This document shows positions 24,496-37,501 of a stretch of 64,000 nucleotides of DNA, in pieces. Location: contig CALXMV010000001.1 of assembly GCA_944389565.1 (NCBI GenBank), positions 51,924 to 115,923 on the forward strand. The letters are read 5' to 3'. Every line of letters begins with the position of its first letter. The first letter of the stretch is position 1. This DNA is from an uncultured Kiritimatiellota bacterium (GTDB lineage: Bacteria; Verrucomicrobiota; Kiritimatiellia; RFP12; DVOR01). The translations under genes and the position numbers were made by a program. The notes beneath the pieces were generated by a model. It did no database searches. It had not been told where the DNA came from and worked only from the letters and a program-made list of their open reading frames with translations.

Positions 24496-24689
24496 GACAA
24501 ATCCTTTCGTTGTTTATGGGCATTCATCGGCGCGACAACACTAAACTAACATGTTTCACGCACGGCCGCACGAAAAATAGGGTGAAGCGGGGCGCCTTCC
24601 GCTTGGTTCGCCCCGTTGCCGGCACCTCCTCCTTCCGACCGTGCGGGTGCGCCGAAGGCGCCCGGTTTGCAGGGGGCGTGCGCGTTTTG

Positions 24690-24695
24690 TATACT
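24690..24695 (+). promoter_or_regulatory. Candidate -10 element (TTG-TATACT) upstream of the FGE-domain gene
   Basis: gcgcgttttgTATACTcatgc lies 27 nt upstream of the ATG at 24722, with a ggagga RBS. This is a weak call. Confidence 0.3.
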
Positions 24696-24721
24696 CATGC
24701 GCAATCCTGGAGGACCATGAG

Positions 24722-27409
24722 ATGAAGCGACTCTTGGCTTTGTTGGCGTCCCTGACCGTCGTGGCCACCGCCTCGGCGGAGCGGGAGTACATCGTCTACG
24801 ACCTGACGGCCCGTGAGGCGACGGCGGTCGAGAACCCCGACCCGAAGGACAAACGGTACCATGAGGGGACGGAGATGCTCTTCGTCCGCGACACCGCCGT
24901 CGGCGAGGCCTTCTACATCGGCGTCTGGGAGGTGACGTGCGCCCAGGCCGTCCACCTGGGGTGGGCCACGGCCAATGCGGGCGTGGGGCAGGCGTACGTC
25001 ACGCGGGGCGACGCCGCCACCTACGACTTCGCCCAGAACCATTCGCTCTCCGGTTTCACGGGGCTGAGCCTGCCGACCTTGGGGCAATGGAAGGCCTACG
25101 CGGAGGACGTCCAGCCGCAAGACTCGGTGAACGTGTTTCGCGGAAACTACAATTACGGGATTCGGACCATCGCGGAGTGGTACGGCAAGTACCAGGCGGA
25201 CGTCGAGCCCAACGCCTTTGGCGTCTACGACATCTTCGGCAACGCGGCGGAGTACGCCTCCACCGACGGCCTCTTCCACGGCGGCTACGCGCAGAGCTCG
25301 TGCGACTACTCCGACTCCCACGACGCCGTCGCGTACGCGGGGAAGACGGCCTCGGCCCTTTCCGCCCTCGGCGATTTCCTCGGTGCGCGGCTTGTCTACA
25401 CGCCGCCGGCGGAGCGCACCTACACCGTGACGGTCACGCTTGACGGCGAGCCCGTGGCGGGGTGGGACGCCTCGCACGGCTACAAGGCCGGCGAGCGGGT
25501 GACGCTCCCCGAGCCGACCCTCGCGGCCTTCCACCGCCTCGCCGAGCCGACCGTCACGCCCGAGGGGCTCGAGATCGACGCGGATCGCTCCTTCCTCATG
25601 CCGGCGGAGGATGTCACGGTCGCCTACGCGTCCGTCCCTTACGCCATCGTCCAGGCCGTCGACGCCACCGTCTCCGACCCCACGCCTGCCGCGGGGGCGA
25701 CCGTCACCCTCACCGCCGCCGCCTCGGAGCCGTGGCGCACCCTCGCCGGCTGGGAGGCCTCCGAGGGCGCCACCGCCCCCGAGGGCGCGCCCGCCACCTT
25801 CGAGTTCCGAATCCCCGAGACGATCCAAGGCGGCGAGACGTACACCTTCACCGCCCGCTTCGTCACCGCCCCACGCGTCCTGGTCTACGGCGGCACCGTC
25901 GCGGTCGGTGAGGGCGAGGATCTCGGCGACGGCTTCTACTCCGTCGGCGCGGCACTCACCCTCACCGCCCCGGCCACCCTCAATGGCGGCGAGTACCGTT
26001 TCGAGGCCTGGGTCGACGCCACCGGCGAGCCGATCCCCACCCGTGCCACCTGCCAGGTCACCGCCGGCGCCAACGGCACCGTCGCCACCTACGCCGCCAC
26101 CTATGCCCTCGACGAGGAGGGCGTCCAGGGTGCCGTCATCGACATCGCCTCCACGACGGACGAGGAGGGCGCCCCCGCCGCCTGGCCGCTCTTCGGCTCC
26201 CTGCCCGACGAACGGCAGACCTCCGTGCCCGACCCTTACGGCAACACCTATCGCCATTTTTCCTATCACGATGCCGGCCCGCTCGCCAGCTTCTCCCTCG
26301 ACGATGGCACCCTGACCTATCCCGAGGCGGCCTCCGAGGGCGGCGTCCCCACCGTCGACACCACCGACGAGGGGCTGACCCGGAAACTCCAACTCCGCCG
26401 CGTGGCGCCCGCCGAGGGCAAGGACTTCTACCTCGCCGTCCATGAGGTGACCATCGGCCAAATGGCGCGTGCCTACAAGCGCACCGGCACCACGCTGCAC
26501 TATGATTCCGGCGATGCCTGCGTCGCCTGCACCGCCAATGAGTTCTACCTGCCGGGCTATGAGGATCCATGGCCCACCAAGGTCACGGCGACGATCGCCA
26601 AGGCATTGGGGCGCGACTTCCGCCAGCCCACCAAGGCGGAGATCCGCGCCATCGGCGATTCGGCGCGCGAGACCAACGCGAACGCCGGCCTCGGCGCCGA
26701 GCGCGATGAGGAGATCACGCGGAAGATGGTCGTCTGCCATCCCTCCGCCATCGCCAAACCCGCCTCGAGGGAGGCGGATCCCTACGGTTTCTACGACCTC
26801 TGGGGCAATGGCTATGAGTACGCCGGCGATGGCACCGTCTTCGGCGGCTGTTACGGGAGCCAGTTCGGCGAATGCAATCTCGACACGGTCTTTAATCATC
26901 CCTCCAACACGCTTCTTGCCGCGCGGCCGTTGCTGGAGGTGGAGACGCCCGTGACGCTTCGCTTGGAGGATGAGGACGGGCGGACGCTCCAGGGCATCGC
27001 CGGCAAGCGCCTCTTCCCCGAGGGCGTGGCCACGCCCGAACGCGCGGGCCATGCCTTCGCCGGCTGGACGCTCGGCGGCGAGGCCATCCCCCTCGATCAC
27101 GTGCTCCGGGCCGAGGACGACGGCAAGGTCCTCGCCGCCACCTGGACGCCAAACGCCACGGCCATCAAGGTCATCTACCACGACGGCCTCTCCGGCCCGG
27201 AGACCGTCTATCCCGGCATGGCCACCCGCATCTACGCCCCCGCGGGCAAGACCATCGCCACCCTCACCGTCCGGGGCACCGAGAGCGCCGTGTGGGACCC
27301 CGAGACCCAGACCCTCACCATCCCCGCCGACGCCCCCGACACCCTCACGGTCAACGCCACCTTCGCCGAGCCCGCCCCCACGCCCGGCTTCCGCCTCATC
27401 CTGCGCTGA
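24722..27409 (+). CDS. Secreted protein with two formylglycine-generating-enzyme (FGE/SUMF1)-like domains and Listeria-Bacteroides-repeat-like beta domains
   Basis: It has the signal peptide MKRLLALLASLTVVATASA. Domain 1 is FYIGVWEVTCAQA...FGVYDIFGNAAEYA and domain 2 is KDFYLAVHEVTIGQMARAY...YGFYDLWGNGYEYAGDG, both with the FGE-sulfatase fold pattern. HAFAGWTLGGEAIPLDHVL is a Flg_new-like repeat. The listed ORF start at 24641 (GTG) is probably upstream of the true start. Confidence 0.65.
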   Translation: MKRLLALLASLTVVATASAEREYIVYDLTAREATAVENPDPKDKRYHEGTEMLFVRDTAVGEAFYIGVWEVTCAQAVHLGWATANAGVGQAYVTRGDAATYDFAQNHSLSGFTGLSLPTLGQWKAYAEDVQPQDSVNVFRGNYNYGIRTIAEWYGKYQADVEPNAFGVYDIFGNAAEYASTDGLFHGGYAQSSCDYSDSHDAVAYAGKTASALSALGDFLGARLVYTPPAERTYTVTVTLDGEPVAGWDASHGYKAGERVTLPEPTLAAFHRLAEPTVTPEGLEIDADRSFLMPAEDVTVAYASVPYAIVQAVDATVSDPTPAAGATVTLTAAASEPWRTLAGWEASEGATAPEGAPATFEFRIPETIQGGETYTFTARFVTAPRVLVYGGTVAVGEGEDLGDGFYSVGAALTLTAPATLNGGEYRFEAWVDATGEPIPTRATCQVTAGANGTVATYAATYALDEEGVQGAVIDIASTTDEEGAPAAWPLFGSLPDERQTSVPDPYGNTYRHFSYHDAGPLASFSLDDGTLTYPEAASEGGVPTVDTTDEGLTRKLQLRRVAPAEGKDFYLAVHEVTIGQMARAYKRTGTTLHYDSGDACVACTANEFYLPGYEDPWPTKVTATIAKALGRDFRQPTKAEIRAIGDSARETNANAGLGAERDEEITRKMVVCHPSAIAKPASREADPYGFYDLWGNGYEYAGDGTVFGGCYGSQFGECNLDTVFNHPSNTLLAARPLLEVETPVTLRLEDEDGRTLQGIAGKRLFPEGVATPERAGHAFAGWTLGGEAIPLDHVLRAEDDGKVLAATWTPNATAIKVIYHDGLSGPETVYPGMATRIYAPAGKTIATLTVRGTESAVWDPETQTLTIPADAPDTLTVNATFAEPAPTPGFRLILR

Positions 27410-27453: not shown

Positions 27454-27573
27454 GAACCCTCCCGACTTTCACCCCGAACCCTCCCGACTTCCGGGTCAGA
27501 CCCTTAAGGGTTTCGCCCCAGACCCTCCCGACTTCCGGGTCAGACCCTTAAGGGTTTCGCCCCAAACCCTCCC
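27454..27573. repeat. Tandem palindromic repeat block (unit about 44 bp, GACCCTCCCGACTTCCGGGTCAGACCCTTAAGGGTTTCGCCCCA, two full copies plus partial copies)
   Basis: Seen directly. It contains the perfect palindrome CCCTTAAGGG and the GACCC...GGGTC inverted repeat, and shares GGGTTTCGCCCCAAACCCT with the 10.96-kb repeat. Confidence 0.8.
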
Positions 27574-27582
27574 ATGCGGGAT

Positions 27583-27593
27583 TGTGGTATCAT
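27583..27593 (+). promoter_or_regulatory. Extended -10 promoter element TTGTGGTATCAT placed about 7 nt upstream of the ATG at 27601 (predicts a leaderless mRNA for the giant gene)
   Basis: gggaTTGTGGTATCATgcatggcATGAGACTG is seen directly. The same element occurs in front of nusA, gpmI and the VWA gene. Confidence 0.5.
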
Positions 27594-27600
27594 GCATGGC

Positions 27601-30600
27601 ATGAGACTGTGGCGCACGGGTCGGTTGCTGACGTGGGCGATGGCGTTTGCCGTCGTGGGCGGCGCGCGCGGCGTTGGGTTGGCGCCGGGGGTGTGCCCGA
27701 CGAATCTGACTTGGGCGGTGGAGGCCTATGCGGGGGCGGATTGGGGCGCCTGGGAGGCGCGTGTGGCCGCGGACGCGGAGGGGCTGGCGGCGGTGGCACG
27801 CGAGATCCCACCCACGCCGCCGGGGATGGTGACCTACATCGAGCAAACGGCCGAGGAGTTGCCGGAGGCGTTGGCGGCGTGCACGAACGCGGCGCCAAGC
27901 GTGTTGGTGGGGGGCGTCCGGGCGTGGGATTTCCGGGTGGCGGAGCGGGTGGCCGCGGATGGCGCGCGGGCGTTTCTGACGTTTGCGGGGGAGACGGTCT
28001 TCCATGCGCAGGGGGTGCCGGCCGACTTCGACGCGGAGGCATGGGCGTTGGCGGCCTACACGGAGGATGGGCGCCTGCCGGAGACGGTGGCCGGCGACGC
28101 GGCGCGGCGGGAGGAGTGGTTCGCCATGCGGGGGCGGGAACGGCTGGGCCTGGCGTATACCTTCGTGGAGCGGGGGCGGCTGGAGGATTACGTGGCGGCG
28201 CGCGAGGCGGAGGCCGCGGCGCGTGAGGAGGCCTGGGAGGAGGAGGGCGCGGCGGGGGCGTGGGGCTTCGGGGTGCGGGAGATGGAGGTGGGCGCCGGGG
28301 AGATGGCGTTCGGCTTCTGCGACCCGGCGGGGTCGGATCTGTACGTGTTGGGGCGGAAGAGCCTGGAGGCGTGGGACGATTGGGCGCTCATCGGCAAAGT
28401 CGAGGCGGAGGGGCGGCGATGGGTGGCCTTCGGGTTGCCGATGGACATGCATTTCTGGAAGTTCCTGGATGCCTCGCTGGACAGCGACGGGGACGGCATC
28501 GCGGACGGTCTGGAGGTGGGGTGGTTCGGGACGGACCCCCTGCGGGCGGACACGGCCGGAAGCCTGATCGACGACTGGCGGAAAATCTACGTGTATGGCA
28601 TGGACGCGCGGGTGGCGGACACCGACGGGGACGGTCTGCCGGATGGCTGGGAGCTGCTGAACGGCCTCGACCCTTACGCGGCGGACGCGGAGGGGGACCC
28701 TGACGGGGACGGGATCGCCAACCGTCTGGAATTGGCCTATGGGACCGACCCGCAACGGGCGGATTCGGACGGGGACGGTTTGGGCGACCGTGAGGAGACG
28801 GGGTGGGCGGAGGTGACCCATGGCGTGGGGCCGGTGGCGGCGGGCACGGGGCGTGTCGCGCTCGCGGAGGGCGTGGCGGTGGGCCTGCCCTCCCAAATGC
28901 GTCTGGGCGGCCGCGCCTACGCGCGCGTCGAGGCCTCGCGGTCGGGCGTGGTGCGGCTGCTCGGCGAGTTCCCGATCGCCATCCGGGTCTTCCCGGAGGG
29001 GATGGCGTGGCCGGAGGCGTTCCGCGCGGGAATCTTCGCGTGGGAGGCGGAGGAGGGTTTCGTCATCGCCTTCGAGAACGTCGGTCTGCCGGGGGAGCCC
29101 GCGACGACGCTGGGGCGCGCGCAGGTCATCCTTCGGGCGGATTCCGGGGGCGTGGAGGTGCGCTACACGACCCTGCAGGGTGGCCTCGCCGCGCTCACGG
29201 GGGTCGGCGCGAGGCGGCCGGACGGCCGTTTTGGCGAACTGCTCGACCCCGGCACGGTGACCTTGGGCGATTGCGTGACCTACCGCTTCGGCGCGGGCTC
29301 CGACCCGACGCTCCCGGACACCGACGGCGACGGGGTGGAGGATGGCGCGGAGGTCGCGGCGGGCCGGTCGGCCCCAGGCCCGGACGACGACTTCGACGGT
29401 CTGCCCGATCGGTGGGAGCGGCGCTTCGGCCTTGACCCCCTCTCCGCCTCGGGCGCGGATGGCGCGGCGGGCGACCCCGACGGCGACGGGCTCCCGAACC
29501 TGCGCGAGCACGCCCTGGGCACCGACCCGACCGCCGTGGATTCCGACGGCGACGGGCTGGGCGACGCCGCGGAGGTGGGCGCCGTCACGCGCCGCACGCA
29601 CGTCGCCCCCATGGATACCTCCGCGGGGCGGGTGGTGGCGGTCTATGACAGGGAGGCCACCGCCGGCTATGTGTTTTTCGACCTGCCCTTCCCCGTGCGG
29701 GTGGGCGGGGCGGACTATCCGCGCGTGGGGCTCAACATCGACGGCGTGCTCACGTTCGTGCCAGCCGGCGAGACCGCGGTGCGCTTCCCCTCGGCACGGC
29801 GGGCGTTGGGCGAGACGCCCCTGGACACGCGTTACCCCTCCCTCGCGCTCTACTGGGCGGATCTGATGGTGGCGGAGGCCTTCCGCTCGGAACTGCGCGT
29901 CGTGGAGATGCCGGGCGAGACGGTCGTCGTCGAGTGCCTGAACTTGGCCAAGCAGGGCGGTTTCGCCTTCCTGGCCTGGCCGGAGCCCGCGACCTCTTTG
30001 GCGCGTATCCAGGTCATCATCCCGCGCGACGCGGACGCCGCCGGCATCGAGGTGCGCTACACGACCCTGCAGGGCGGTTTCGACGGCGCTGAGGCCACCC
30101 TCGGGGCGCAGTTCGGCACGCAGGCGATCGACCTGGCGCACAATCTGCTCGGCGCCGTCGCCATCGGCGACGCCATCACCTACCACCCCGGCACCGGCAC
30201 GGATCCCGCACGCGCCGACACCGACGGCGACGGGTTGGGCGACGCCGCCGAGTTGCGGCTGGGCCTCGACCCGAAGAACCCGGACCTGGATGGCGACGGC
30301 TTGGCGGATGGCTGGGAGGTCGCCTGGGGGCTTGACCCGCACGTGCCCGATGACCATGCCGCCGATTGGGACGGCGACGGCATCTCCAATTACGTGGAGG
30401 CCCAGTGGGGCACGAACCCGCGCGCGGCGGATTCCGATGGCGACGGCGTCGGCGACGCGGCCGAGATCGCGCAGGGGAGCGACCCCGCCGACGCCTCGGA
30501 CGGGGGCATGGCGGGGCGTTACGTCAAGGTCGCCCTCACGTTCGGCGACCCCAGCGCGAGCGCCTCCGAGAAATACGCCGTCGAGGTGTGCCAGACCGTG

Positions 30601-32682
30601 GGCGAGGGCAGCGGGGAGGCCGCGCCCAAGCGCCTGGAGAACCTGATCTCCGACGGCGCGGAGACGCGCGAGCTCCTCCTCCGCCCCGACGCGGCCTACA
30701 CGGTGACGCTCCGGCACCTCTCCTCGAAGGCCGCGGAGGCCGACCACGACTACACGCTCACCGTCCGCTGCCCGGTCGTCGCCGCGGGCACGCAGGTCGT
30801 CATCGAGGATCCGGAGTCCCTGCTCGGCACGTATGCCACGGGCGGCTCCGCCACGCCCGACACCTACACGGGCAAGGCCGTCACGCTCTATTGCCTCACG
30901 CCGACCCTGACCCCGGATCATGACCGCGACCTCACGTTCGGCCCCATCGACGAGGCGTACGTCGCGGCGGGCACCCCCCTGCCGGTGTGGGTCAATTCGG
31001 ATCATGACCATGAGGACCCCGAGGGCGTCAACGACGGTTCGGAGGCCTCGCAACCCCTGCCCGACAACTTCATTGAGGGGATCCTTTCAGGCGCCTTCGA
31101 TTGCGACGACCTAACCGTGAACGGGCAGTCCGACCTGGAGGACTTCTTCCCCGTGCGCCTGCGGTTGGGCGCGGCGCTGACGGCTTTCCTGGCGGCACAC
31201 CCGCAGGCCACCGCGCACTTGGAGACCGGCCCATGGGAGGGGGCGCTGCACGCGTTGTGGTGCCATGACGGCACGGAATCCGTCCAACGCTTCTTCGACG
31301 CGTCCGCGGGTGGCGGCCGCTACGGCGAGGAAGGGCGGGAGGCCCGTTGGGAGGCGGAGGTCGCCGAGCTGACGGACGGGCTGTTCGGGGACAGGACGCG
31401 CATCCCCCCGCAGGTGCTCGCCACCGCCCAGGCCTCGGAGCGCGGCGACGTGCCGCTCTTCGTCGAGGCGTGCGCCGAGGGCACGCTGACGCTCCGCCTG
31501 CGCGTGCGGGAGGAGTCGGTGGAGGCGCTGGGCGAGGAGGGGAGGATCCTGACGGAATGCGCCTTCGACAGCCGTTTCGTCGAGGCGTGCTATGCCGTGC
31601 TGAATCTGCGCGAGGACACGCCGCAACGTGTCGACCCCGCCGTCGAACGCGCTGAAAAGCCCGACGTGACCGTCTGCCTCGTGCATGGGTACAACGTCTC
31701 GGAGACCGACGCGGCCGAGTGGTTCAACGCCGTCTACAAGCGCCTCTGGCGCTCCGGCTCGACAGCCCGCTTCTGCGGCGTCGTCTGGCGCGGCGACGAC
31801 CAAGGCGTCATCCTGCCGGATTACTATCGGAACGTCGCGAACGCCTTCGATGCCGCGGGGGCGTTCGCCACGGCGCTGGATGCGATCCCCGGGCGCAAGG
31901 TCGTCCTGGCGCACAGCCTCGGCAATATGCTCGTCTCCGCCGCGCTGCAGGATCACGACGCCCCCATCGACGCCTACTTCATGCTCAATTCCGCCGTCCC
32001 CGCCGAAGCCTACGACCCCGCACCGTCCTCCCCGGGCTTCTCCGTCGCCGGCGTCCCCGCCGGCCTCATCCACGATGCGTGGCGCAACTATGACCCCAGG
32101 AGTTGGTCCGCGCTCTGGCATCGGCATTTCCTCCCGCATGAGGGCTTCGCGCCGACCGCCGCCGACGCCGCCCGCGCCACCCTCACCTGGAAGGGCCGCT
32201 TCGAGGACGTGCTCACCGGCCGGGGCGCGAAGGTCTTCCACGTCTACTCGCGCGGCGCGGGCGAGACGAGCGGCGACGAGGTCTTCGAGCTCCTGGGCAC
32301 GACCCCCTCCCCGCTGAGCGGTTTCGACTGGACCGACCTCAAGACCAAAGGCCGTCACGCGTGGCAGAAGCAGGAATGCTGGAAAGGCCGCCGCGAGGCA
32401 AGCGCCCTCGCCCTCGCGGCCTCCGAGGAGATGGGATGGGGCTTCGATGGTGCCGCCGCCGACGTCTCCGCGGAAGCCTCCGCCTCGTTGGGCGAGGCCG
32501 CCTACCGCCAAGCACCCCTCTTCTGCCGCCAGCCCCCCGAAATCCTCGGCGACGACCCCAACGCCATCCTCGACCTCCGCAACACCCTCCTCGCCCGCGC
32601 CATCCCCGCACTCTCCAACGCCGCCGGAAAAACGGATCTTCCAGGCCTTGCTGAGGGCGATCAATTCGACTGTCAAACCTAG
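27601..32682 (+). CDS. Giant secreted Ca-binding protein with multiple thrombospondin type-3-like (DxDxDGxxDxxE) repeats, two ~280-aa repeated modules, and a C-terminal alpha/beta-hydrolase (lipase/esterase-like) domain
   Basis: It has the signal peptide MRLWRTGRLLTWAMAFAVVGGARG. TSP3-like repeats include DTDGDGLPDGWE, DPDGDGIANRLE and DSDGDGLGD. The module ...IQVI(L/I)...GIEVRYTTLQGG occurs twice. The C-terminus has VCLVHGY (oxyanion HG) and VVLAHSLGNML (GxSxG nucleophile elbow). The start could alternatively be 27592 or 27574. Confidence 0.75.
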   Translation: MRLWRTGRLLTWAMAFAVVGGARGVGLAPGVCPTNLTWAVEAYAGADWGAWEARVAADAEGLAAVAREIPPTPPGMVTYIEQTAEELPEALAACTNAAPSVLVGGVRAWDFRVAERVAADGARAFLTFAGETVFHAQGVPADFDAEAWALAAYTEDGRLPETVAGDAARREEWFAMRGRERLGLAYTFVERGRLEDYVAAREAEAAAREEAWEEEGAAGAWGFGVREMEVGAGEMAFGFCDPAGSDLYVLGRKSLEAWDDWALIGKVEAEGRRWVAFGLPMDMHFWKFLDASLDSDGDGIADGLEVGWFGTDPLRADTAGSLIDDWRKIYVYGMDARVADTDGDGLPDGWELLNGLDPYAADAEGDPDGDGIANRLELAYGTDPQRADSDGDGLGDREETGWAEVTHGVGPVAAGTGRVALAEGVAVGLPSQMRLGGRAYARVEASRSGVVRLLGEFPIAIRVFPEGMAWPEAFRAGIFAWEAEEGFVIAFENVGLPGEPATTLGRAQVILRADSGGVEVRYTTLQGGLAALTGVGARRPDGRFGELLDPGTVTLGDCVTYRFGAGSDPTLPDTDGDGVEDGAEVAAGRSAPGPDDDFDGLPDRWERRFGLDPLSASGADGAAGDPDGDGLPNLREHALGTDPTAVDSDGDGLGDAAEVGAVTRRTHVAPMDTSAGRVVAVYDREATAGYVFFDLPFPVRVGGADYPRVGLNIDGVLTFVPAGETAVRFPSARRALGETPLDTRYPSLALYWADLMVAEAFRSELRVVEMPGETVVVECLNLAKQGGFAFLAWPEPATSLARIQVIIPRDADAAGIEVRYTTLQGGFDGAEATLGAQFGTQAIDLAHNLLGAVAIGDAITYHPGTGTDPARADTDGDGLGDAAELRLGLDPKNPDLDGDGLADGWEVAWGLDPHVPDDHAADWDGDGISNYVEAQWGTNPRAADSDGDGVGDAAEIAQGSDPADASDGGMAGRYVKVALTFGDPSASASEKYAVEVCQTVGEGSGEAAPKRLENLISDGAETRELLLRPDAAYTVTLRHLSSKAAEADHDYTLTVRCPVVAAGTQVVIEDPESLLGTYATGGSATPDTYTGKAVTLYCLTPTLTPDHDRDLTFGPIDEAYVAAGTPLPVWVNSDHDHEDPEGVNDGSEASQPLPDNFIEGILSGAFDCDDLTVNGQSDLEDFFPVRLRLGAALTAFLAAHPQATAHLETGPWEGALHALWCHDGTESVQRFFDASAGGGRYGEEGREARWEAEVAELTDGLFGDRTRIPPQVLATAQASERGDVPLFVEACAEGTLTLRLRVREESVEALGEEGRILTECAFDSRFVEACYAVLNLREDTPQRVDPAVERAEKPDVTVCLVHGYNVSETDAAEWFNAVYKRLWRSGSTARFCGVVWRGDDQGVILPDYYRNVANAFDAAGAFATALDAIPGRKVVLAHSLGNMLVSAALQDHDAPIDAYFMLNSAVPAEAYDPAPSSPGFSVAGVPAGLIHDAWRNYDPRSWSALWHRHFLPHEGFAPTAADAARATLTWKGRFEDVLTGRGAKVFHVYSRGAGETSGDEVFELLGTTPSPLSGFDWTDLKTKGRHAWQKQECWKGRREASALALAASEEMGWGFDGAAADVSAEASASLGEAAYRQAPLFCRQPPEILGDDPNAILDLRNTLLARAIPALSNAAGKTDLPGLAEGDQFDCQT

Positions 32683-32822
32683 ATTGTGAATGATGCGAAG
32701 CGTCCGTGGGTTCAGCGTTCAGGAGAGTTGAAAGAGCGATGGCTACATTCAGATGTGAAGGATGTGGCTTATCCATTAACGCTCCCACTTTTTCAGTTCA
32801 TGATTCAGAAAGGAAAGTTGAA

Positions 32823-33941
32823 ATGAGAATGTTTGTGGCTTGCCTCTCGCTGTCGGTAGCCGTGGTACTTTACGCGGAGACGCCTTATGAGCGTAATGAA
32901 CGTTATCAAGGTGCGCAGGCAACCCTTCAATTGACCGTTCGGGATGACCGAGGGGAGCCCGTTGAGGATGCTCGTGTGGAGGCTTCTTTTTGGAACCCGT
33001 TTCAGAATCCGACACGTGTGCAAATTGGCCATACCGATGATGCCGGGACAGTCTCTTTTACGGGAGAGGGTTACTCGGACACGCATTATTATGTTGGAAA
33101 AGATGGATATTATGGAAGTCGCGGAAGGGCGGTGCTCGAAAAACCTGACAAGGACCCCGAGCATTTTTGGGAACGGCTCAGGTGGGAGCCGGTGATTCGT
33201 GACATTACGCTCAAGAAAAAGCGGAATCCCATCGAAGGATTCTTGCATATAGGCATCGAACTCAAAACACCGGCGCTCAATCGTCCCGTGTGGTTTGACC
33301 TTGAGGCCTTCGATTGGTTGCCTCCTTATGGCGAGGGGGTTCACCGTGATGTCGCCATAACCTTGCAGACCGCACGCGTGCAAATAAGGGGGTATGAAGC
33401 CGACAGAATCGCCAAGGCGTGTTTTGCTTTTCCCAATCCGCATGATGGCGCACAGCGTTGCGATGCGGATATCCAATCCTATCACGAAGTGGGATATCAT
33501 GTGAATACGGCCAAGCCATTCGTCAACCCCATGATTCTTGAGGCAGATTTTACGAGAAGTCACGACAAATTTCTTCCTTACACAAGCTATCTGACATTTC
33601 GTGTCAGAAGCAAATGCGATGAGAATGGGAACCTCGTCTCCGCACAGTATGGCTTCATGTATCGCTTTTCGGTTACGGAGGAATGCTTCACAGCCTCTCT
33701 GCTTTTCCTCAATCCCACGCCGAATGACACGAACATCGAATACGATCTCAAGCGGAGCCTGGCGAAATCGGATGCCGATCGCAAGTGGGAGGCTAGGCAG
33801 AAATGTCTTGAGAAACGGTTTGAGGAGGAGCGGAAAATGCTGGAGGAGATGGGTGTGGAGAACTTCATCAGGGCGATACGGGCGAAACGGAGCGGCGCTT
33901 CCGGCACGCCCAAGCAGGAAGCGAAGGGAGCGGCGGAATGA
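32823..33941 (+). CDS. Secreted paralog 1 of a three-member tandem family (signal peptide, N-terminal transthyretin/CarbopepD_reg-like beta-sandwich, variable middle, conserved charged C-terminal tail)
   Basis: It starts MRMFVACLSLSVAVVLYA/ETPY and carries an aaaggaaag RBS. It is low in GC (about 50-55%). The N-terminal ~150 aa are identical to paralog 3 and the C-terminal ~70 aa are shared by all three. Confidence 0.7.
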   Translation: MRMFVACLSLSVAVVLYAETPYERNERYQGAQATLQLTVRDDRGEPVEDARVEASFWNPFQNPTRVQIGHTDDAGTVSFTGEGYSDTHYYVGKDGYYGSRGRAVLEKPDKDPEHFWERLRWEPVIRDITLKKKRNPIEGFLHIGIELKTPALNRPVWFDLEAFDWLPPYGEGVHRDVAITLQTARVQIRGYEADRIAKACFAFPNPHDGAQRCDADIQSYHEVGYHVNTAKPFVNPMILEADFTRSHDKFLPYTSYLTFRVRSKCDENGNLVSAQYGFMYRFSVTEECFTASLLFLNPTPNDTNIEYDLKRSLAKSDADRKWEARQKCLEKRFEEERKMLEEMGVENFIRAIRAKRSGASGTPKQEAKGAAE

Positions 33942-35035
33942 GAACGTTTGTGGCTTGCCTCTCGCTGTCGGTGGCCGTTTCCCTTTACGCGGAGACGCCT
34001 TATGAGCGTAATGAACGTTATCAAGGTGCGCAGGCAACCCTCCAGCTGACGGTGCGTGACGACCGAGGGGTGCCAGTGGAAGGGGCCTATGTGCAAGCGC
34101 ATTTTTGGCAGCCGACCTCGGATGCGGCCGCTGTAGGCGCATACACCGACGAAAAAGGGTACGCGAACGTCGTGGGTAATGGGTATACAGATGTCCGATA
34201 TTCTGTGAGCAAAGATGGGTATTACAGGACTCGCGGGAGTGCGCGATTGTCGCTTCCCGAAAATGATCCAACGCCTTTTTGGAAAGATTATCAGTGGGCA
34301 CCCATCATAAGAGAAACCGTGATTAGGAAAGTCCGCCGCCCGGTCTCTGGGGTGCTTCATCTTGGCGAATGGCTGTCGCCTCCCCAGACAGATGTGCCTA
34401 TCGGGTTGGATTTGCAACTTATGGATTGGATGCCGCCCCACGGTCGGGGAAGCCATTGTGATGTCGTGGTCAAGTTTGTGACGCGGACACTGCGTGACAA
34501 TGGGCACGCATGGGAGGTTGTCGATTCAATCGCATTGGAGTTCCCTAATGAGCACGATGGTGTTTTGCTTTGTGATGCGGCACCCTATTCGGCATTCATC
34601 ACTCCCTATCATGTTCCTGAGAACGGAGATTTCGTGGCGTGTTACAGACTGACAGCATCGGAGAAGGAGGGAACCTTTTTTCTGCCAGATACGCAAACAC
34701 TCCTTTTCCGGATTCGGAGCAAAGAGGGTGCAGGCGGTGCAATCGTCTCTGCTCATTATGGCTCAATTTTTCGTTGTGTCATGACGGGTGGAATGGTTTC
34801 CATGGATGTTTTCCTCAATCCCACGCCGAATGACACGAACATCGAATACGACCCCAAGCGGAGTCTGGCGAAGTCGTATGCCGACCGCAGGTGGGAGGCC
34901 ACGCAGAAGCGTCTTGAGGAGGAGCGGAAAATGCTTGAGGAGATGGGCGTGGAGAACTTCATCAGGGCGGTGCGGGCGAAACGGAGCGGCGCTTCCGGCA
35001 CGCCCAAGCAGGAAGCGAAGGGAGCGGCGCAATGA
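33938..35035 (+). CDS. Secreted paralog 2 of the tandem family (divergent after residue ~45, conserved C-terminal tail)
   Basis: It starts MRTFVACLSLSVAVSLYAETPYERNERYQGAQATLQLTVRDDRG and ends ...FLNPTPNDTNIEYDPKRSLAKSYADRRWEATQKRLEEERKMLEEMGVENFIRAVRAKRSGASGTPKQEAKGAAQ. Its start has an ATGA overlap with paralog 1. Confidence 0.7.
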   Translation: MRTFVACLSLSVAVSLYAETPYERNERYQGAQATLQLTVRDDRGVPVEGAYVQAHFWQPTSDAAAVGAYTDEKGYANVVGNGYTDVRYSVSKDGYYRTRGSARLSLPENDPTPFWKDYQWAPIIRETVIRKVRRPVSGVLHLGEWLSPPQTDVPIGLDLQLMDWMPPHGRGSHCDVVVKFVTRTLRDNGHAWEVVDSIALEFPNEHDGVLLCDAAPYSAFITPYHVPENGDFVACYRLTASEKEGTFFLPDTQTLLFRIRSKEGAGGAIVSAHYGSIFRCVMTGGMVSMDVFLNPTPNDTNIEYDPKRSLAKSYADRRWEATQKRLEEERKMLEEMGVENFIRAVRAKRSGASGTPKQEAKGAAQ

Positions 35036-36138
35036 GAACGTTTGTGGCTTGCCTCTCGCTGTCGGTAGCAGTGTCCCTTTACGCGGAGACGCCTTATGAG
35101 CGTAATGAACGCTATCAAGGCGCGCAGGCGACCCTGCAATTGACCGTTCGGGATGACCGAGGGGAGCCCGTTGAGGATGCTCGTGTGGAGGCTTCTTTTT
35201 GGAACCCGTTTCAGAATCCGACACGTGTGCAAATTGGCCATACCGATGATGCCGGGACAGTCTCTTTTACGGGAGAGGGTTACTCGGACACGCATTATTA
35301 TGTTGGAAAAGATGGATATTATGGAAGTCGCGGAAGGGCGGTGCTCGAAAAACCTGACAAGGACCCCGTGCATTTTTGGGAACGGCTCAGGTGGGAGCCG
35401 GTAATCCGTGATGTCACGCTCAAAAAAATACGACACCCAATATCAGGGTTTTTGCATCACAATATTCCACTCACACCTCCTTGTCTCAATCAACCAATAG
35501 GATTGGATTTTGAGCGTTGGGACTGGTTGCCGCCTTATGGGATGGGGAAGCATGAAGATGTCAAAATCACGTTCGAGGCACAACGCGTCGTCCAACCCAA
35601 CTTTTCTAAAGACTTGGTTATTGCCATCCATTTCGCGTTTCCCAATCCAAATGATGGTATGCAAATCTGCCCTGCGGATACTTTTTCAACTTTCGTTCCC
35701 ACTTATCACGTTGATGCCCAAAAACCATTTATGAATACTGTTTCTTTTTATCGGCAAAAACCTTCAGAACAATATCAGTTTCTGGCTCACACCTCTTATC
35801 TGGCTTTTCGGGTTCGTAGTCAGAAAGGTGATGCGGGGATGTTCGTGGCGCATTATGGATTTATATATCAACTTCTTGATATCTCAGATCAAGAGTTTTG
35901 CCCGACTATTGTCTTTTTCAATCCCACGCCGAATGACACGAACATCGAATACGACCCCAAGCGGAGTCTGGCGAAGTCGTATGCCGACCGCAGGTGGGAG
36001 GCCACGCAGAAGCGTCTTGAGGAGGAGCGGAAAATGCTGGAGGAGATCGGCGTGGAGAACTTCATCAGGGCGATACGGGCGAAACGGAGCGGCGCTTCCG
36101 GCACGCCCAAGCAGGAAGCGAAGGGAGCGGCGGAATGA
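35032..36138 (+). CDS. Secreted paralog 3 of the tandem family (N-terminus identical to paralog 1, unique very low-GC middle, conserved C-terminal tail)
   Basis: It has ATGA overlaps with paralog 2 upstream and with the small protein downstream. The middle region is about 43-48% GC. Confidence 0.7.
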   Translation: MRTFVACLSLSVAVSLYAETPYERNERYQGAQATLQLTVRDDRGEPVEDARVEASFWNPFQNPTRVQIGHTDDAGTVSFTGEGYSDTHYYVGKDGYYGSRGRAVLEKPDKDPVHFWERLRWEPVIRDVTLKKIRHPISGFLHHNIPLTPPCLNQPIGLDFERWDWLPPYGMGKHEDVKITFEAQRVVQPNFSKDLVIAIHFAFPNPNDGMQICPADTFSTFVPTYHVDAQKPFMNTVSFYRQKPSEQYQFLAHTSYLAFRVRSQKGDAGMFVAHYGFIYQLLDISDQEFCPTIVFFNPTPNDTNIEYDPKRSLAKSYADRRWEATQKRLEEERKMLEEIGVENFIRAIRAKRSGASGTPKQEAKGAAE

Positions 36139-36650
36139 GGGCGATGTTGGTTTTTGCCATGATGTTGGGGGTGGCGTGGTGCGCGTGGGGCGGGCTCGTG
36201 CCACGATTGCTGATCTTGGAGGCGGCGAGCGTGAAGGGGCAGGACCCGACGGCCCCGTGGACCGTTTACGGGACGTACCCGGCGGGGACGGTGGTGACGG
36301 GGAGCAAGCATTGCGAGGGGGCGGAGGGGACGGTCTGGAAGTTCGGCGTGTATGACTATCTGGGGATCACGCAGAACGTGACCTTCGCGTTGCGCTTCAA
36401 GGGGATGGATTGGACGGGGGAGGTGGGGAGCGCCAAGGTGGAGGGGATCTTCCGCCCGTACACGGACGGGGCCGTGACGTGCACGCTCGCGACGGTCTAT
36501 CAGGTGCGGGACGCCTTCTCGGCGCCCGACCGCGCGCCGACCTCCTATCCCGACGCGGCGATCCTGGAATGGAAGTTCCTCATTTTCTGGGAATGGGAGG
36601 GCGAGCCCGATGGCTCGTCGGGCGCGCTTTCGCCGGTTTCCGAAAAATAG
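36135..36650 (+). CDS. Small secreted protein of unknown function, high GC, translationally coupled to the paralog array
   Basis: It starts MRAMLVFAMMLGVAWCAWGG (signal peptide) and is 171 aa. Its ATGA overlaps the stop codon of paralog 3. Confidence 0.55.
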   Translation: MRAMLVFAMMLGVAWCAWGGLVPRLLILEAASVKGQDPTAPWTVYGTYPAGTVVTGSKHCEGAEGTVWKFGVYDYLGITQNVTFALRFKGMDWTGEVGSAKVEGIFRPYTDGAVTCTLATVYQVRDAFSAPDRAPTSYPDAAILEWKFLIFWEWEGEPDGSSGALSPVSEK

Positions 36651-36745: not shown

Positions 36746-37501
36746 ATGAAGGCAAAACGCAACCAAGGCTTCACGCTGATCGAGCTGCTCGTCGTGATTG
36801 TGATCATCGGCATTCTCGCAGGCTCGCTCTTCGGCCCCGTCACCAACGCCTTGCAATCCGCCCAGCGTTCGGGCATGATGCAGCGTGGCATCCAGATCGT
36901 CCGCGCCATCAACTCCGCCGATATGTCCGGCCGTTACGAGAGCCTTGCGTGGCCGGCCGACGAGAATCAGGACCTCAAGCCCTCCGAGTCCCTCACCGGG
37001 CCGGATATGTACCAGAACTTCACCTCCACCGCCGCCTACTTCCAGGAGGCCCTGTATGTGACGGAGTCCGACGTCAACCGCCGCAACCGCCTGAAGGTGC
37101 TCAAGGACATCGAGCCCTCCACGCTCGTCGCCCCCGGCGTCACCGCCGCCGCCGGCAACACCATCAACGACAACAACTGCGCGTGGGTCATCGCCAAGAA
37201 CACCCGCAACGCGCCGGCCAAGACCCCCGTCCTGGTCTCCCGTAACATCAACTGCTCCACCCTGGCCAGCACCGCCGGCAACGACACCTCCGCCGACGCC
37301 GAGACCCTCCTGACCACCGCCCAGCCCTTCGGCCAGAACGGTTGCGTGCTGATTTACAAGGACAACTCCGGCAAGGACTTCGATGCCGGCAACGTCTACG
37401 CCAAGGCGATGATCTTCGAGGCCGTCGGCTCCGACAACCTCACCAGCATCGAGCAGGGCGACGACGCGTTCGAGTTCCTCCAGAGCGGCTCCAGCAACTA
37501 A
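36746..37501 (+). CDS. Prepilin-type N-terminal cleavage/methylation domain protein (type II secretion pseudopilin-like)
   Basis: MKAKRNQGFTLIELLVVIVIIGILAG is the class III signal peptide with G/F cleavage motif and conserved Glu+5. An aaggag RBS is present. Confidence 0.8.
   Translation: MKAKRNQGFTLIELLVVIVIIGILAGSLFGPVTNALQSAQRSGMMQRGIQIVRAINSADMSGRYESLAWPADENQDLKPSESLTGPDMYQNFTSTAAYFQEALYVTESDVNRRNRLKVLKDIEPSTLVAPGVTAAAGNTINDNNCAWVIAKNTRNAPAKTPVLVSRNINCSTLASTAGNDTSADAETLLTTAQPFGQNGCVLIYKDNSGKDFDAGNVYAKAMIFEAVGSDNLTSIEQGDDAFEFLQSGSSN

Follow-up and report, generated by a model that had tools for sequence, protein, structure and literature searches.

The window analysed here, that is, the whole stretch of 64,000 nucleotides (nt) taken from contig CALXMV010000001.1 of an uncultured Kiritimatiellota bacterium, contains an array of three low-GC paralogous genes (P1, P2 and P3, hereafter called the partner genes) located downstream of a giant gene whose product ends in an α/β-hydrolase domain. 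The features of this locus are listed in Table 1.

Table 1. Position of the giant gene, its hydrolase tail and the partner array in the window.
Feature	Position	Strand	Description	Evidence
Giant gene, as now read, 1702 amino acids (aa)	27574..32682	+	signal-peptide-like N-terminus, TSP3 repeats, C-terminal α/β-hydrolase domain	
α/β-hydrolase domain	~31486-32679	+	nucleophile motif AHSLGN	
In-frame TAG	32680..32682	+	ends the giant open reading frame (ORF) 47 codons short of its natural end; frame open to 32826	
Residual tail, type A	32683..32826	+	IVNDAKRPWVQRSGELKERWLHSDVKDVAYPLTLPLFQFMIQKGKLK, then stop; the TGA overlaps the ATG of P1 (ATGA)	tblastn
P1	32823..33941	+	partner with core type A; presumed cognate, directly after tail A	ORF, alignment, haplotype comparison
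P2	33938..35035	+	partner with core type B; orphan here	haplotype comparison; structure model
P3	35032..36138	+	chimeric, with core type C behind a 5' head (~370 nt) of A type; an orphan in the window	binned identities, P1-P3 statistics
Conserved junction block 1	33713..34067	+	P1 3' tail block, ATGA, P2 conserved 5' head	
Conserved junction block 2	34807..35401	+	P2 3' tail block, ATGA, P3 5' head	
Third copy of the conserved 3' tail block	35910..36138	+	end of P3	
Low-GC variable module	32634..36138	+	hydrolase tail and three partner genes	L001 DNA homology break, GC profile
171-aa gene	36135..36650	+	signal-peptide-like N-terminus, native high GC; closes the array	phmmer

The overall GC content of the 64-kb window was 69.4%, with a GC content at third codon positions (GC3) of about 0.9. 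The GC contents of P1, P2 and P3 were 0.525, 0.552 and 0.503 and their GC3 values 0.57, 0.59 and 0.52, as compared with 0.716 and 0.90 for the giant gene, 0.657 and 0.89 for the 171-aa gene, 0.636 and 0.92 for a pilin-like gene, 0.680 and 0.89 for argC, and 0.725 and 0.95 for parB. When the composition was followed in 300-nt windows, it fell from about 0.70 at 32300-32599 to 0.50 at 32600-32899, was 0.40 in the core of P3 and stood at 0.67 by 36050; in 1-kb windows the array was the sole stretch below 0.60 GC within the window. The compositional jump claimed in a preliminary description of this DNA was therefore borne out by gene GC, GC3 and both window sizes, and GC is not uniform across the locus.

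Alignment of the three partner genes showed 91% identity between P1 and P3 across the first 105 nt and 264 identical positions of the 265 in alignment columns 106-370, the longest exact run being 232 nt. The 3' blocks (~230 nt) of P1, P2 and P3 were 93-96.5% identical, with one 12-nt indel, in P1, and the cores between the conserved ends (columns 371-890) shared just 45-54% identity. Both the 5' sequence common to P1 and P3 and the 3' block common to all three had been described previously and were recovered in this DNA alignment, which places the departure of P2 from the common head, formerly set after codon 45, at about columns 105-130 (codons 35-45). The 5' head of P3 contained in junction block 2 is near-identical to positions 32823-33192, and by sequence reading junction block 1 holds a Shine-Dalgarno-like AAGGGAG upstream of the next ATG. 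ATGA overlaps join P1 to P2, P2 to P3 and P3 to the 171-aa gene, as had been noted; the similar overlap claimed between the giant gene and P1 exists only for the frame that continues past the in-frame TAG. A promoter and terminator scan of the array yielded sites no more numerous than in shuffled sequence.

Gene callers trained on a 70% GC background mis-call the low-GC genes of these arrays. One protein in the public record, P0003, corresponds to P1 with an internal GTG (codon 104) taken as its start, and the second paralog of a related contig, L001 (L001:11092-12189), was left uncalled save for a 77-aa fragment.

The giant protein matched TSP3_bac in Pfam (2e-38), and its hydrolase region gave weak, generic Pfam matches to Abhydrolase and DUF900; a PDB sequence search with the hydrolase region returned nothing meaningful. 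The hydrolase family comprised at least 131 clusters. In the family alignment the nucleophile Ser of AHSLGN was conserved in 60/60 sequences, as was an acidic residue after β7 (60/60), and the His of a C-terminal (R)WLHS(D) motif in 59/59, the sole gap being the truncated protein of the window. With Ser in a Sm-x-Ser-x-Sm elbow, the acid after β7 and His near the C-terminus, the canonical features of α/β-hydrolases are present, and Ser, Asp/Glu and His may form the putative triad of a lipase/esterase-like hydrolase.

In the window, the TAG that ends the giant ORF lies 140 nt before the ATG of P1. The residual tail beyond it showed 60% and 49% identity to the tails of contigs L001 and L003, respectively (tblastn). 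The codon for the candidate catalytic His (32746-32748) is located 3' of the TAG, and the encoded protein is thus without the invariant His. Because the rest of the tail is intact after the TAG, a nonsense mutation at this codon would have to be recent; otherwise the TAG is an error of sequencing. A second disrupted giant gene with an intact partner was seen in L103 (L103:3695-8913) and L104 (L104:88-5306), two contigs that may derive from the same reads, where a 1-nt indel relative to the window splits the giant gene into ORFs of 757 and 1001 aa; disrupted giant genes beside intact partners may be recurrent. Long ORFs antisense to the giant gene (window 27496-31053, minus strand; 1185 and 521 aa) look like stop-poor artefacts of 70% GC DNA and not genes.

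The partner proteins belonged to no Pfam, NCBIfam or PADLOC family, and gave just sub-threshold Ig-like matches at residues 30-100. A word-indexed search with the partner collected 46 clusters, and an exhaustive profile search yielded 2,028 cluster representatives (50% identity; E<=1e-30), most of them 300-350 aa long. A signal-peptide-like N-terminus was detected by a simple heuristic scan in 158 of the 164 full-length members, suggesting that the partners are exported. An AlphaFold model of P2, built from a 46-sequence family alignment, is confident, with a predicted local distance difference test score (pLDDT) of 91.3, and all-β with two domains: a signal-like helix at the N-terminus is followed by a β-sandwich that would be transthyretin/CarboxypepD_reg-like (PF13620), and a second predicted β-sandwich (residues ~120-295) corresponds to the variable core. 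Helices in the model are confined to the signal peptide and to a tail unique to the clade.

Tail types and partner arrays within the species

The flanks of the array were ~98-99% identical between the window and several metagenome contigs, and the giant gene backbone was 98.7-99.0% identical among the window, L001, L003 and L103. The giant protein was essentially identical in these strains up to ...IPALSNAAG(K/R)T, after which three tail types, unrelated in appearance, were found over the last ~60 aa, with a mutual identity of 43-56%. This variable segment sits inside the enzyme fold and carries the invariant His. The window has tail A followed by partners A, B and a gene with an A head and a C core. 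L001 and L002 have tail C followed by a C partner with its own head, then B and A; L003 and L004 have tail B followed by a B partner with its own head and then A; and L103 and L104 have tail B followed only by a B partner with its own head. The 171-aa gene closes the array in every case. The first partner therefore matched the tail type throughout, B with B in four assemblies, C with C in two and A with A in the window.

Moreover, the orphan genes of the window correspond to first partners of other strains. In the strains with tail B (L003, L004, L103 and L104) the first partner has a core 100% identical to that of P2, and in those with tail C (L001 and L002) the first partner has core C. The copy number was 1, 2 or 3 in strains of the same species, in agreement with the earlier suggestion that the repeats would promote deletion or expansion of copies, and the order was permuted (A-B-C in the window, C-B-A in L001). 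The proposal of recombining cassettes stood in as far as the layout of conserved ends and variable cores is reshuffled among strains; the array itself is not a free-standing island but the downstream half of a module, the other half being the variable C-terminal tail of the giant gene.

The DNA homology between the window and L001 ended at 32633, where GC falls, and resumed in the last tail block, at ~35909, with 98.5% identity. The synonymous divergence (dS) of the backbone between the two was 0.024-0.058, and core A (dS 0.48) and core C (dS 0.33) had about 10x the backbone value, whereas core B had a dS of 0.008 and was 100% identical across three haplotypes. Core values far above the backbone (A and C) or near zero (B) indicate allele import or exchange and not local divergence. 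Between core types dS was saturated and the nonsynonymous divergence (dN) was 0.56-0.74, and the head and tail blocks of paralogs within one genome differed by a dS of just 0.05-0.23. These values fit old, functionally constrained alleles that would have been moved between strains by recombination, and junction blocks kept alike by gene conversion or repeated crossover. In addition, a patch in the core of P1 (33362-33600, columns 540-780) had 57-83% identity to the A genes of L001 and L003, and its flanking segments 91-100%, which suggests a smaller mosaic segment within core A.

Arrangements were reproduced in two assemblies each (L001 and L002, L003 and L004, L103 and L104). Other short-read assemblies of the window's species break their contigs at the array repeats, and the contigs holding the exact 171-aa protein of the window end 25 nt upstream of that gene. 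The exact P2, P3 and P0003 proteins were absent from the public record, and two metagenome scans found no same-species copy. An assembly collapse as the origin of the three genes was rejected, as each core is unique and recurs in other assemblies. Close to the conserved 3' block (FLNPTPND...), both partner genes of L003 (8966-11058) and L004 (3289-5459) carried frameshifts, which may reflect genuine pseudogenes or else faulty assembly within the repeat. Since gene callers mis-call the array and short-read assemblers break there, the system is under-represented in annotations of metagenome-assembled genomes (MAGs).

The hydrolase and its partner in other lineages

Profile hidden Markov models of the partner and of the hydrolase were mapped on 55 independent loci from GTDB species representatives, with a genome-contig profile scan built on 15 partner sequences. 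The lineages covered were Kiritimatiellae, Lentisphaeria, Verrucomicrobiota, Phycisphaeraceae and a few Gammaproteobacteria, and the relatives came largely from gut and rumen MAGs. Of the 33 loci whose upstream sequence spanned 1.5 kb or more, 29 had a hydrolase C-terminus immediately upstream of the partner and on the same strand. In the retrieved contigs with upstream sequence, the partner was always directly downstream of a large protein, a homolog of the giant gene of the window, with a 4-bp overlap in the closest relatives. In more distant relatives the variable part was the last ~100-250 residues of the giant protein. The linkage, the drop in GC and the existence of three distinct cores are independent of the order in which the cores were assembled.

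Two to four partner genes were present in 13/55 loci, and 5'-truncated orphan fragments of the hydrolase C-terminus were found between partners in 8/55. Locus L013 had the giant gene, a partner, a 258-aa copy of the last ~250 aa of the giant protein, a second partner, a 248-aa diverged copy and two further partners. One pair of C-terminus and partner (CT2 and P0007) stood as an orphan in L012-L014 but formed the expressed end of the giant protein in L010 and L011, and an orphan pair of L010 recurred as the main pair in L045, with an identity of 1.00 for the tail and 0.95 for the partner. In the window itself there were orphan partner genes only, and C-terminal fragments were not found. One Kiritimatiellaeota MAG (BRZ_EK bin27) held at least two full hydrolase/partner loci (L016 and L045) as well as a third array, of partners and orphans (L018).

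The partner genes were AT-richer than their surroundings in 52/56 loci, by a mean of 12 GC points, with a drop beyond 10 points in 37 of the 56 and host flanks ranging from 38 to 71% GC. The hydrolase C-terminus was also AT-richer than the hydrolase core, and in the window low GC starts inside the giant gene, at about 32634, where the tails diverge. In every lineage, low GC thus characterises the exchangeable module. As the drop is family-wide, the compositional jump is not evidence of one recent import, and it was rejected as proof that a single low-GC donor supplied the array. Of the horizontal acquisition proposed in the preliminary description, the import and exchange of alleles is upheld by the dS values of the cores, but low GC is no proof of one recent acquisition.

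Interpretation of the locus

It is very likely that the locus is built as cassettes, each joining a variable tail to a matched partner, and we consider that this region is probably the variable half of a polymorphic hydrolase toxin/immunity locus. The giant protein would be a Sec-exported surface or secreted TSP3-repeat protein ending in a lipase/esterase-like serine hydrolase, constant within the species save for the last ~60 residues, and this tail, which carries the candidate catalytic His, would come in discrete types, each encoded with a matching exported partner. The hydrolase could be an antibacterial, or at least self-damaging, lipase/esterase acting outside the cytoplasm, and the partner would bind and neutralise it in the periplasm as an immunity protein; what we infer here covers the toxicity itself, binding as the means of neutralisation, the target, be it membrane lipid or some other ester, and the route of delivery. 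A Sec signal peptide on the giant protein, the 'T2SS' (type II secretion system) mode of the framework of Zhang et al. (2012; PMC3482391), is plausible from its N-terminal sequence.

The likeliest role for P1, P2 and P3 is that of exported immunity proteins, with one of them for each tail type of the giant protein. The term specificity cassettes, applied earlier to the paralogs, may hold for the partners in this sense, although it missed the half of the cassette that encodes the hydrolase tail. P1 would be the cognate of tail A; the two orphans, P2 and P3, would confer immunity to the toxins with tails B and C that co-circulating strains carry. Homologous recombination would use the near-identical junction blocks as substrates, and cassettes could thereby be added, deleted, permuted and chimerised. 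The toxin of the window would be disabled by the nonsense codon just before the His-bearing tail, with the three immunity-like genes intact, and the strain may thus be toxin-null yet immune to all three types seen in the species.

Several observations weigh against this polymorphic toxin/immunity interpretation. The toxin and immunity roles are proposed from gene context and sequence, and the partner fold, as modelled, is uninformative on function. A Pfam search of the window giant and of six giants of other lineages gave matches to TSP3_bac and to Abhydrolase families and, below threshold, a single Ig-like match to Big_1, but nothing else; domains for toxin trafficking or release (PAAR, VgrG, Rhs, HINT etc.) were not found in these giants, and no secretion system was found adjacent to the locus. 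The swapped C-termini are all homologous pieces of one enzyme, unlike the unrelated domains swapped in classical systems. Pairwise dN/dS was ~0.2 in every segment, with no gene-wide positive selection, so that diversification by point mutation is unsupported at this resolution. At deep divergence, partner identity correlated about equally with the hydrolase tail (rho 0.42) and core (rho 0.44) in a Mantel-type test; a better fit of partner divergence to the tail was not discriminated, and since the correlation is not tail-specific the argument from co-variation rests on the close-strain comparisons. Finally, the TAG is possibly a sequencing error, and the core order and the P3 chimera could be affected by the assembly through repeats of 230-370 nt.

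The partner might instead be a dedicated helper of the hydrolase, such as a steric chaperone or foldase, a secretion adaptor or a surface anchor, with one version per tail type and the extra copies being leftovers of recombination. The position of the partner directly downstream, with translational coupling via ATGA, its export to the compartment where the hydrolase folds, the conserved third gene after the array, which hints at a multi-protein apparatus, and the failure to find typical toxin trafficking domains in the scanned giants would all suit a helper. However, intact orphans persist without a matching tail at the same locus (P2 and P3 here, up to four partners elsewhere), three intact copies are kept despite a truncated enzyme, and cassettes of an orphan C-terminal fragment and a partner are a signature of toxin/immunity systems. 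The predicted all-β partner also differs from the helical Lif-type lipase foldases. We therefore regard a helper role as unlikely. A system of antigenic or receptor variation seems very unlikely, in which the giant protein, as an adhesin or enzyme on the surface, would have its exposed tail varied from silent cassettes against phage or host recognition, with the partner as a co-varying surface subunit: the 5'-truncated silent copies of the C-terminus in relatives, the discrete tail types within one species, the occurrence of TSP3 repeats in surface proteins such as CglD and MtsD (NCBIfam matches) and the largely gut and rumen origin of the relatives agree with such variation, but the varied segment is not an obviously exposed appendage and holds the invariant catalytic His inside the enzyme fold, each cassette brings a partner gene of its own, although variation from silent cassettes can do without one, and partner-only arrays without C-terminal fragments are common.

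Equally, we hold it highly improbable that the array is a horizontally acquired island of secreted paralogs unrelated to the giant gene, or that its mosaic layout is largely an assembly artefact. The strong compositional jump could be read in this way, as could the frameshifts at the 3' block in L003 and L004 and the exact repeats of up to 232 nt within blocks of 230-370 nt, which exceed short-read length and at which other assemblies break. Against it stand the strict linkage to the hydrolase C-terminus in 29/33 loci across phyla, the onset of low GC within the giant gene, the three unique cores that are present whatever their order and each recur in other assemblies, the arrangements reproduced in three pairs of assemblies, and the failure to find mobile-element genes adjacent to the array.

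A polymorphic toxin with immunity genes and orphan cassettes is already known as a type of system, and lipase-like α/β-hydrolase toxin domains occur among polymorphic toxins (PMC3482391). As in contact-dependent inhibition (CDI) CdiA-CT/CdiI (CT, C-terminus), Rhs and MafB systems (PMC3482391), we found a large, apparently exported protein whose N-terminal body is constant and whose C-terminus varies by strain, a small cognate gene immediately downstream that co-varies with the C-terminus among close strains and, in relatives, cassettes of a 5'-truncated C-terminus and partner, with the same pair orphan in one genome and expressed in another. The variable module is moreover AT-richer than the host genome. 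A GC contrast between core and tip is likewise classical for Rhs. In contrast with the classical systems, here just the last ~60-250 residues of one hydrolase, carrying His and sometimes also Asp, are swapped, no recognised trafficking, release or pre-toxin domain was found in the scanned giants, the carrier has bacterial TSP3 repeats, the hosts are members of the Planctomycetes-Verrucomicrobia-Chlamydiae (PVC) group and a few Gammaproteobacteria, a third gene is conserved, and the window array consists of partner genes only, without C-terminal fragments.

A close functional analogue would be TslA/TilA of Staphylococcus aureus, in which a polymorphic lipase is accompanied by non-identical paralogs for extracytoplasmic immunity in tandem arrays of variable size, where the TilA/DUF576 arrays were interpreted as protection against the variants of other strains (PMC10730906). 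The strain-polymorphic lipase-type catalytic domain and the variable number of non-identical extracytoplasmic paralogs would be shared with the locus studied here; secretion by a type VII system (T7SS) with a helical LXG-like domain, the domain order and the fold of the immunity proteins (DUF576 lipoproteins) differ in that system, and the window proteins had no Pfam match to the TslA/TilA families. The Tle/Tli pairs of type VI secretion systems (T6SS) would resemble our system by analogy in having a serine hydrolase (GxSxG-type, here AHSLG) that acts from the periplasmic side and an immunity protein that is a lipoprotein or bears a signal peptide. Tli immunity proteins are often duplicated in tandem. 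Nevertheless, T6SS parts and VgrG/PAAR/Hcp fusions were not found in the scanned giants and neighbours, the giant protein is predicted to be Sec-exported and has TSP3 repeats, and Tle-type families such as DUF2235 were absent from the Pfam matches of the hydrolase region. Lif, a membrane-anchored, largely α-helical steric chaperone encoded downstream of its lipase, differs from the partner, which was modelled as two β-sandwiches. Orphan immunity arrays have been described in gut Bacteroidales (bioRxiv 10.1101/471110; PMC12247911), and these acquired interbacterial defence (AID) clusters also contain strain-variable immunity genes without matching toxins, which are held to guard against the toxins of competitors, while P2 and P3 match conspecific tail types; AID clusters are associated with mobile elements or recombinases and hold unrelated families, whereas here a single family occupies a fixed chromosomal slot in the toxin operon.

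No paper describing this system was found in the literature, and none on polymorphic toxins in gut or rumen Kiritimatiellae, Lentisphaeria or Verrucomicrobiota, whose interbacterial weapons are essentially uncharted. The hydrolase clade with its TSP3 carrier, the large unnamed partner family, the PVC host range, the exchange of sub-fragments and the conserved third gene are new. Our confidence is evenly balanced for the fuller proposal, namely that this is a previously undescribed interbacterial-antagonism system of the PVC group (Kiritimatiellae, Lentisphaeria, Verrucomicrobiota and Phycisphaerae, sporadically Gammaproteobacteria) in which specificity changes through exchange of a His-bearing sub-fragment, each with its own periplasmic two-β-sandwich immunity protein, and that the window strain is 'disarmed but fully immune'. 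If the toxin/immunity reading holds, many proteins of a large family so far without annotation would gain a named function, sub-domain swapping would be a way of diversifying specificity, and the window would offer a natural case of strains losing a toxin yet keeping the immunity.

Neighbouring genes

The neighbours of the array include GMP synthase, the pilin-like gene, argC and parB, and neither mobile-element nor secretion-system genes were adjacent to it. The 171-aa gene had no Pfam, NCBIfam or PADLOC match. Homologs of it were located after the last partner in L005-L008, L010, L011, L013, L015, L016, L018, L045 and L055, with further matches in L019 and L069, so that the system may include it as a third component.

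Upstream of the giant gene, a gene of ~900 aa at 24581-27406 (a 942-codon open frame, with a likely ATG at ~24722) had a signal-peptide-like start and no confident Pfam family; it was conserved at this site in L001, L003 and L103 and did not turn up beside the system in other lineages. The pilin-like gene (window 36746-37501), which bears a prepilin N-terminal methylation motif (PF07963, 7e-10), coincided with a mild GC dip of 0.61-0.66 and showed zero amino-acid change between the window and L001.

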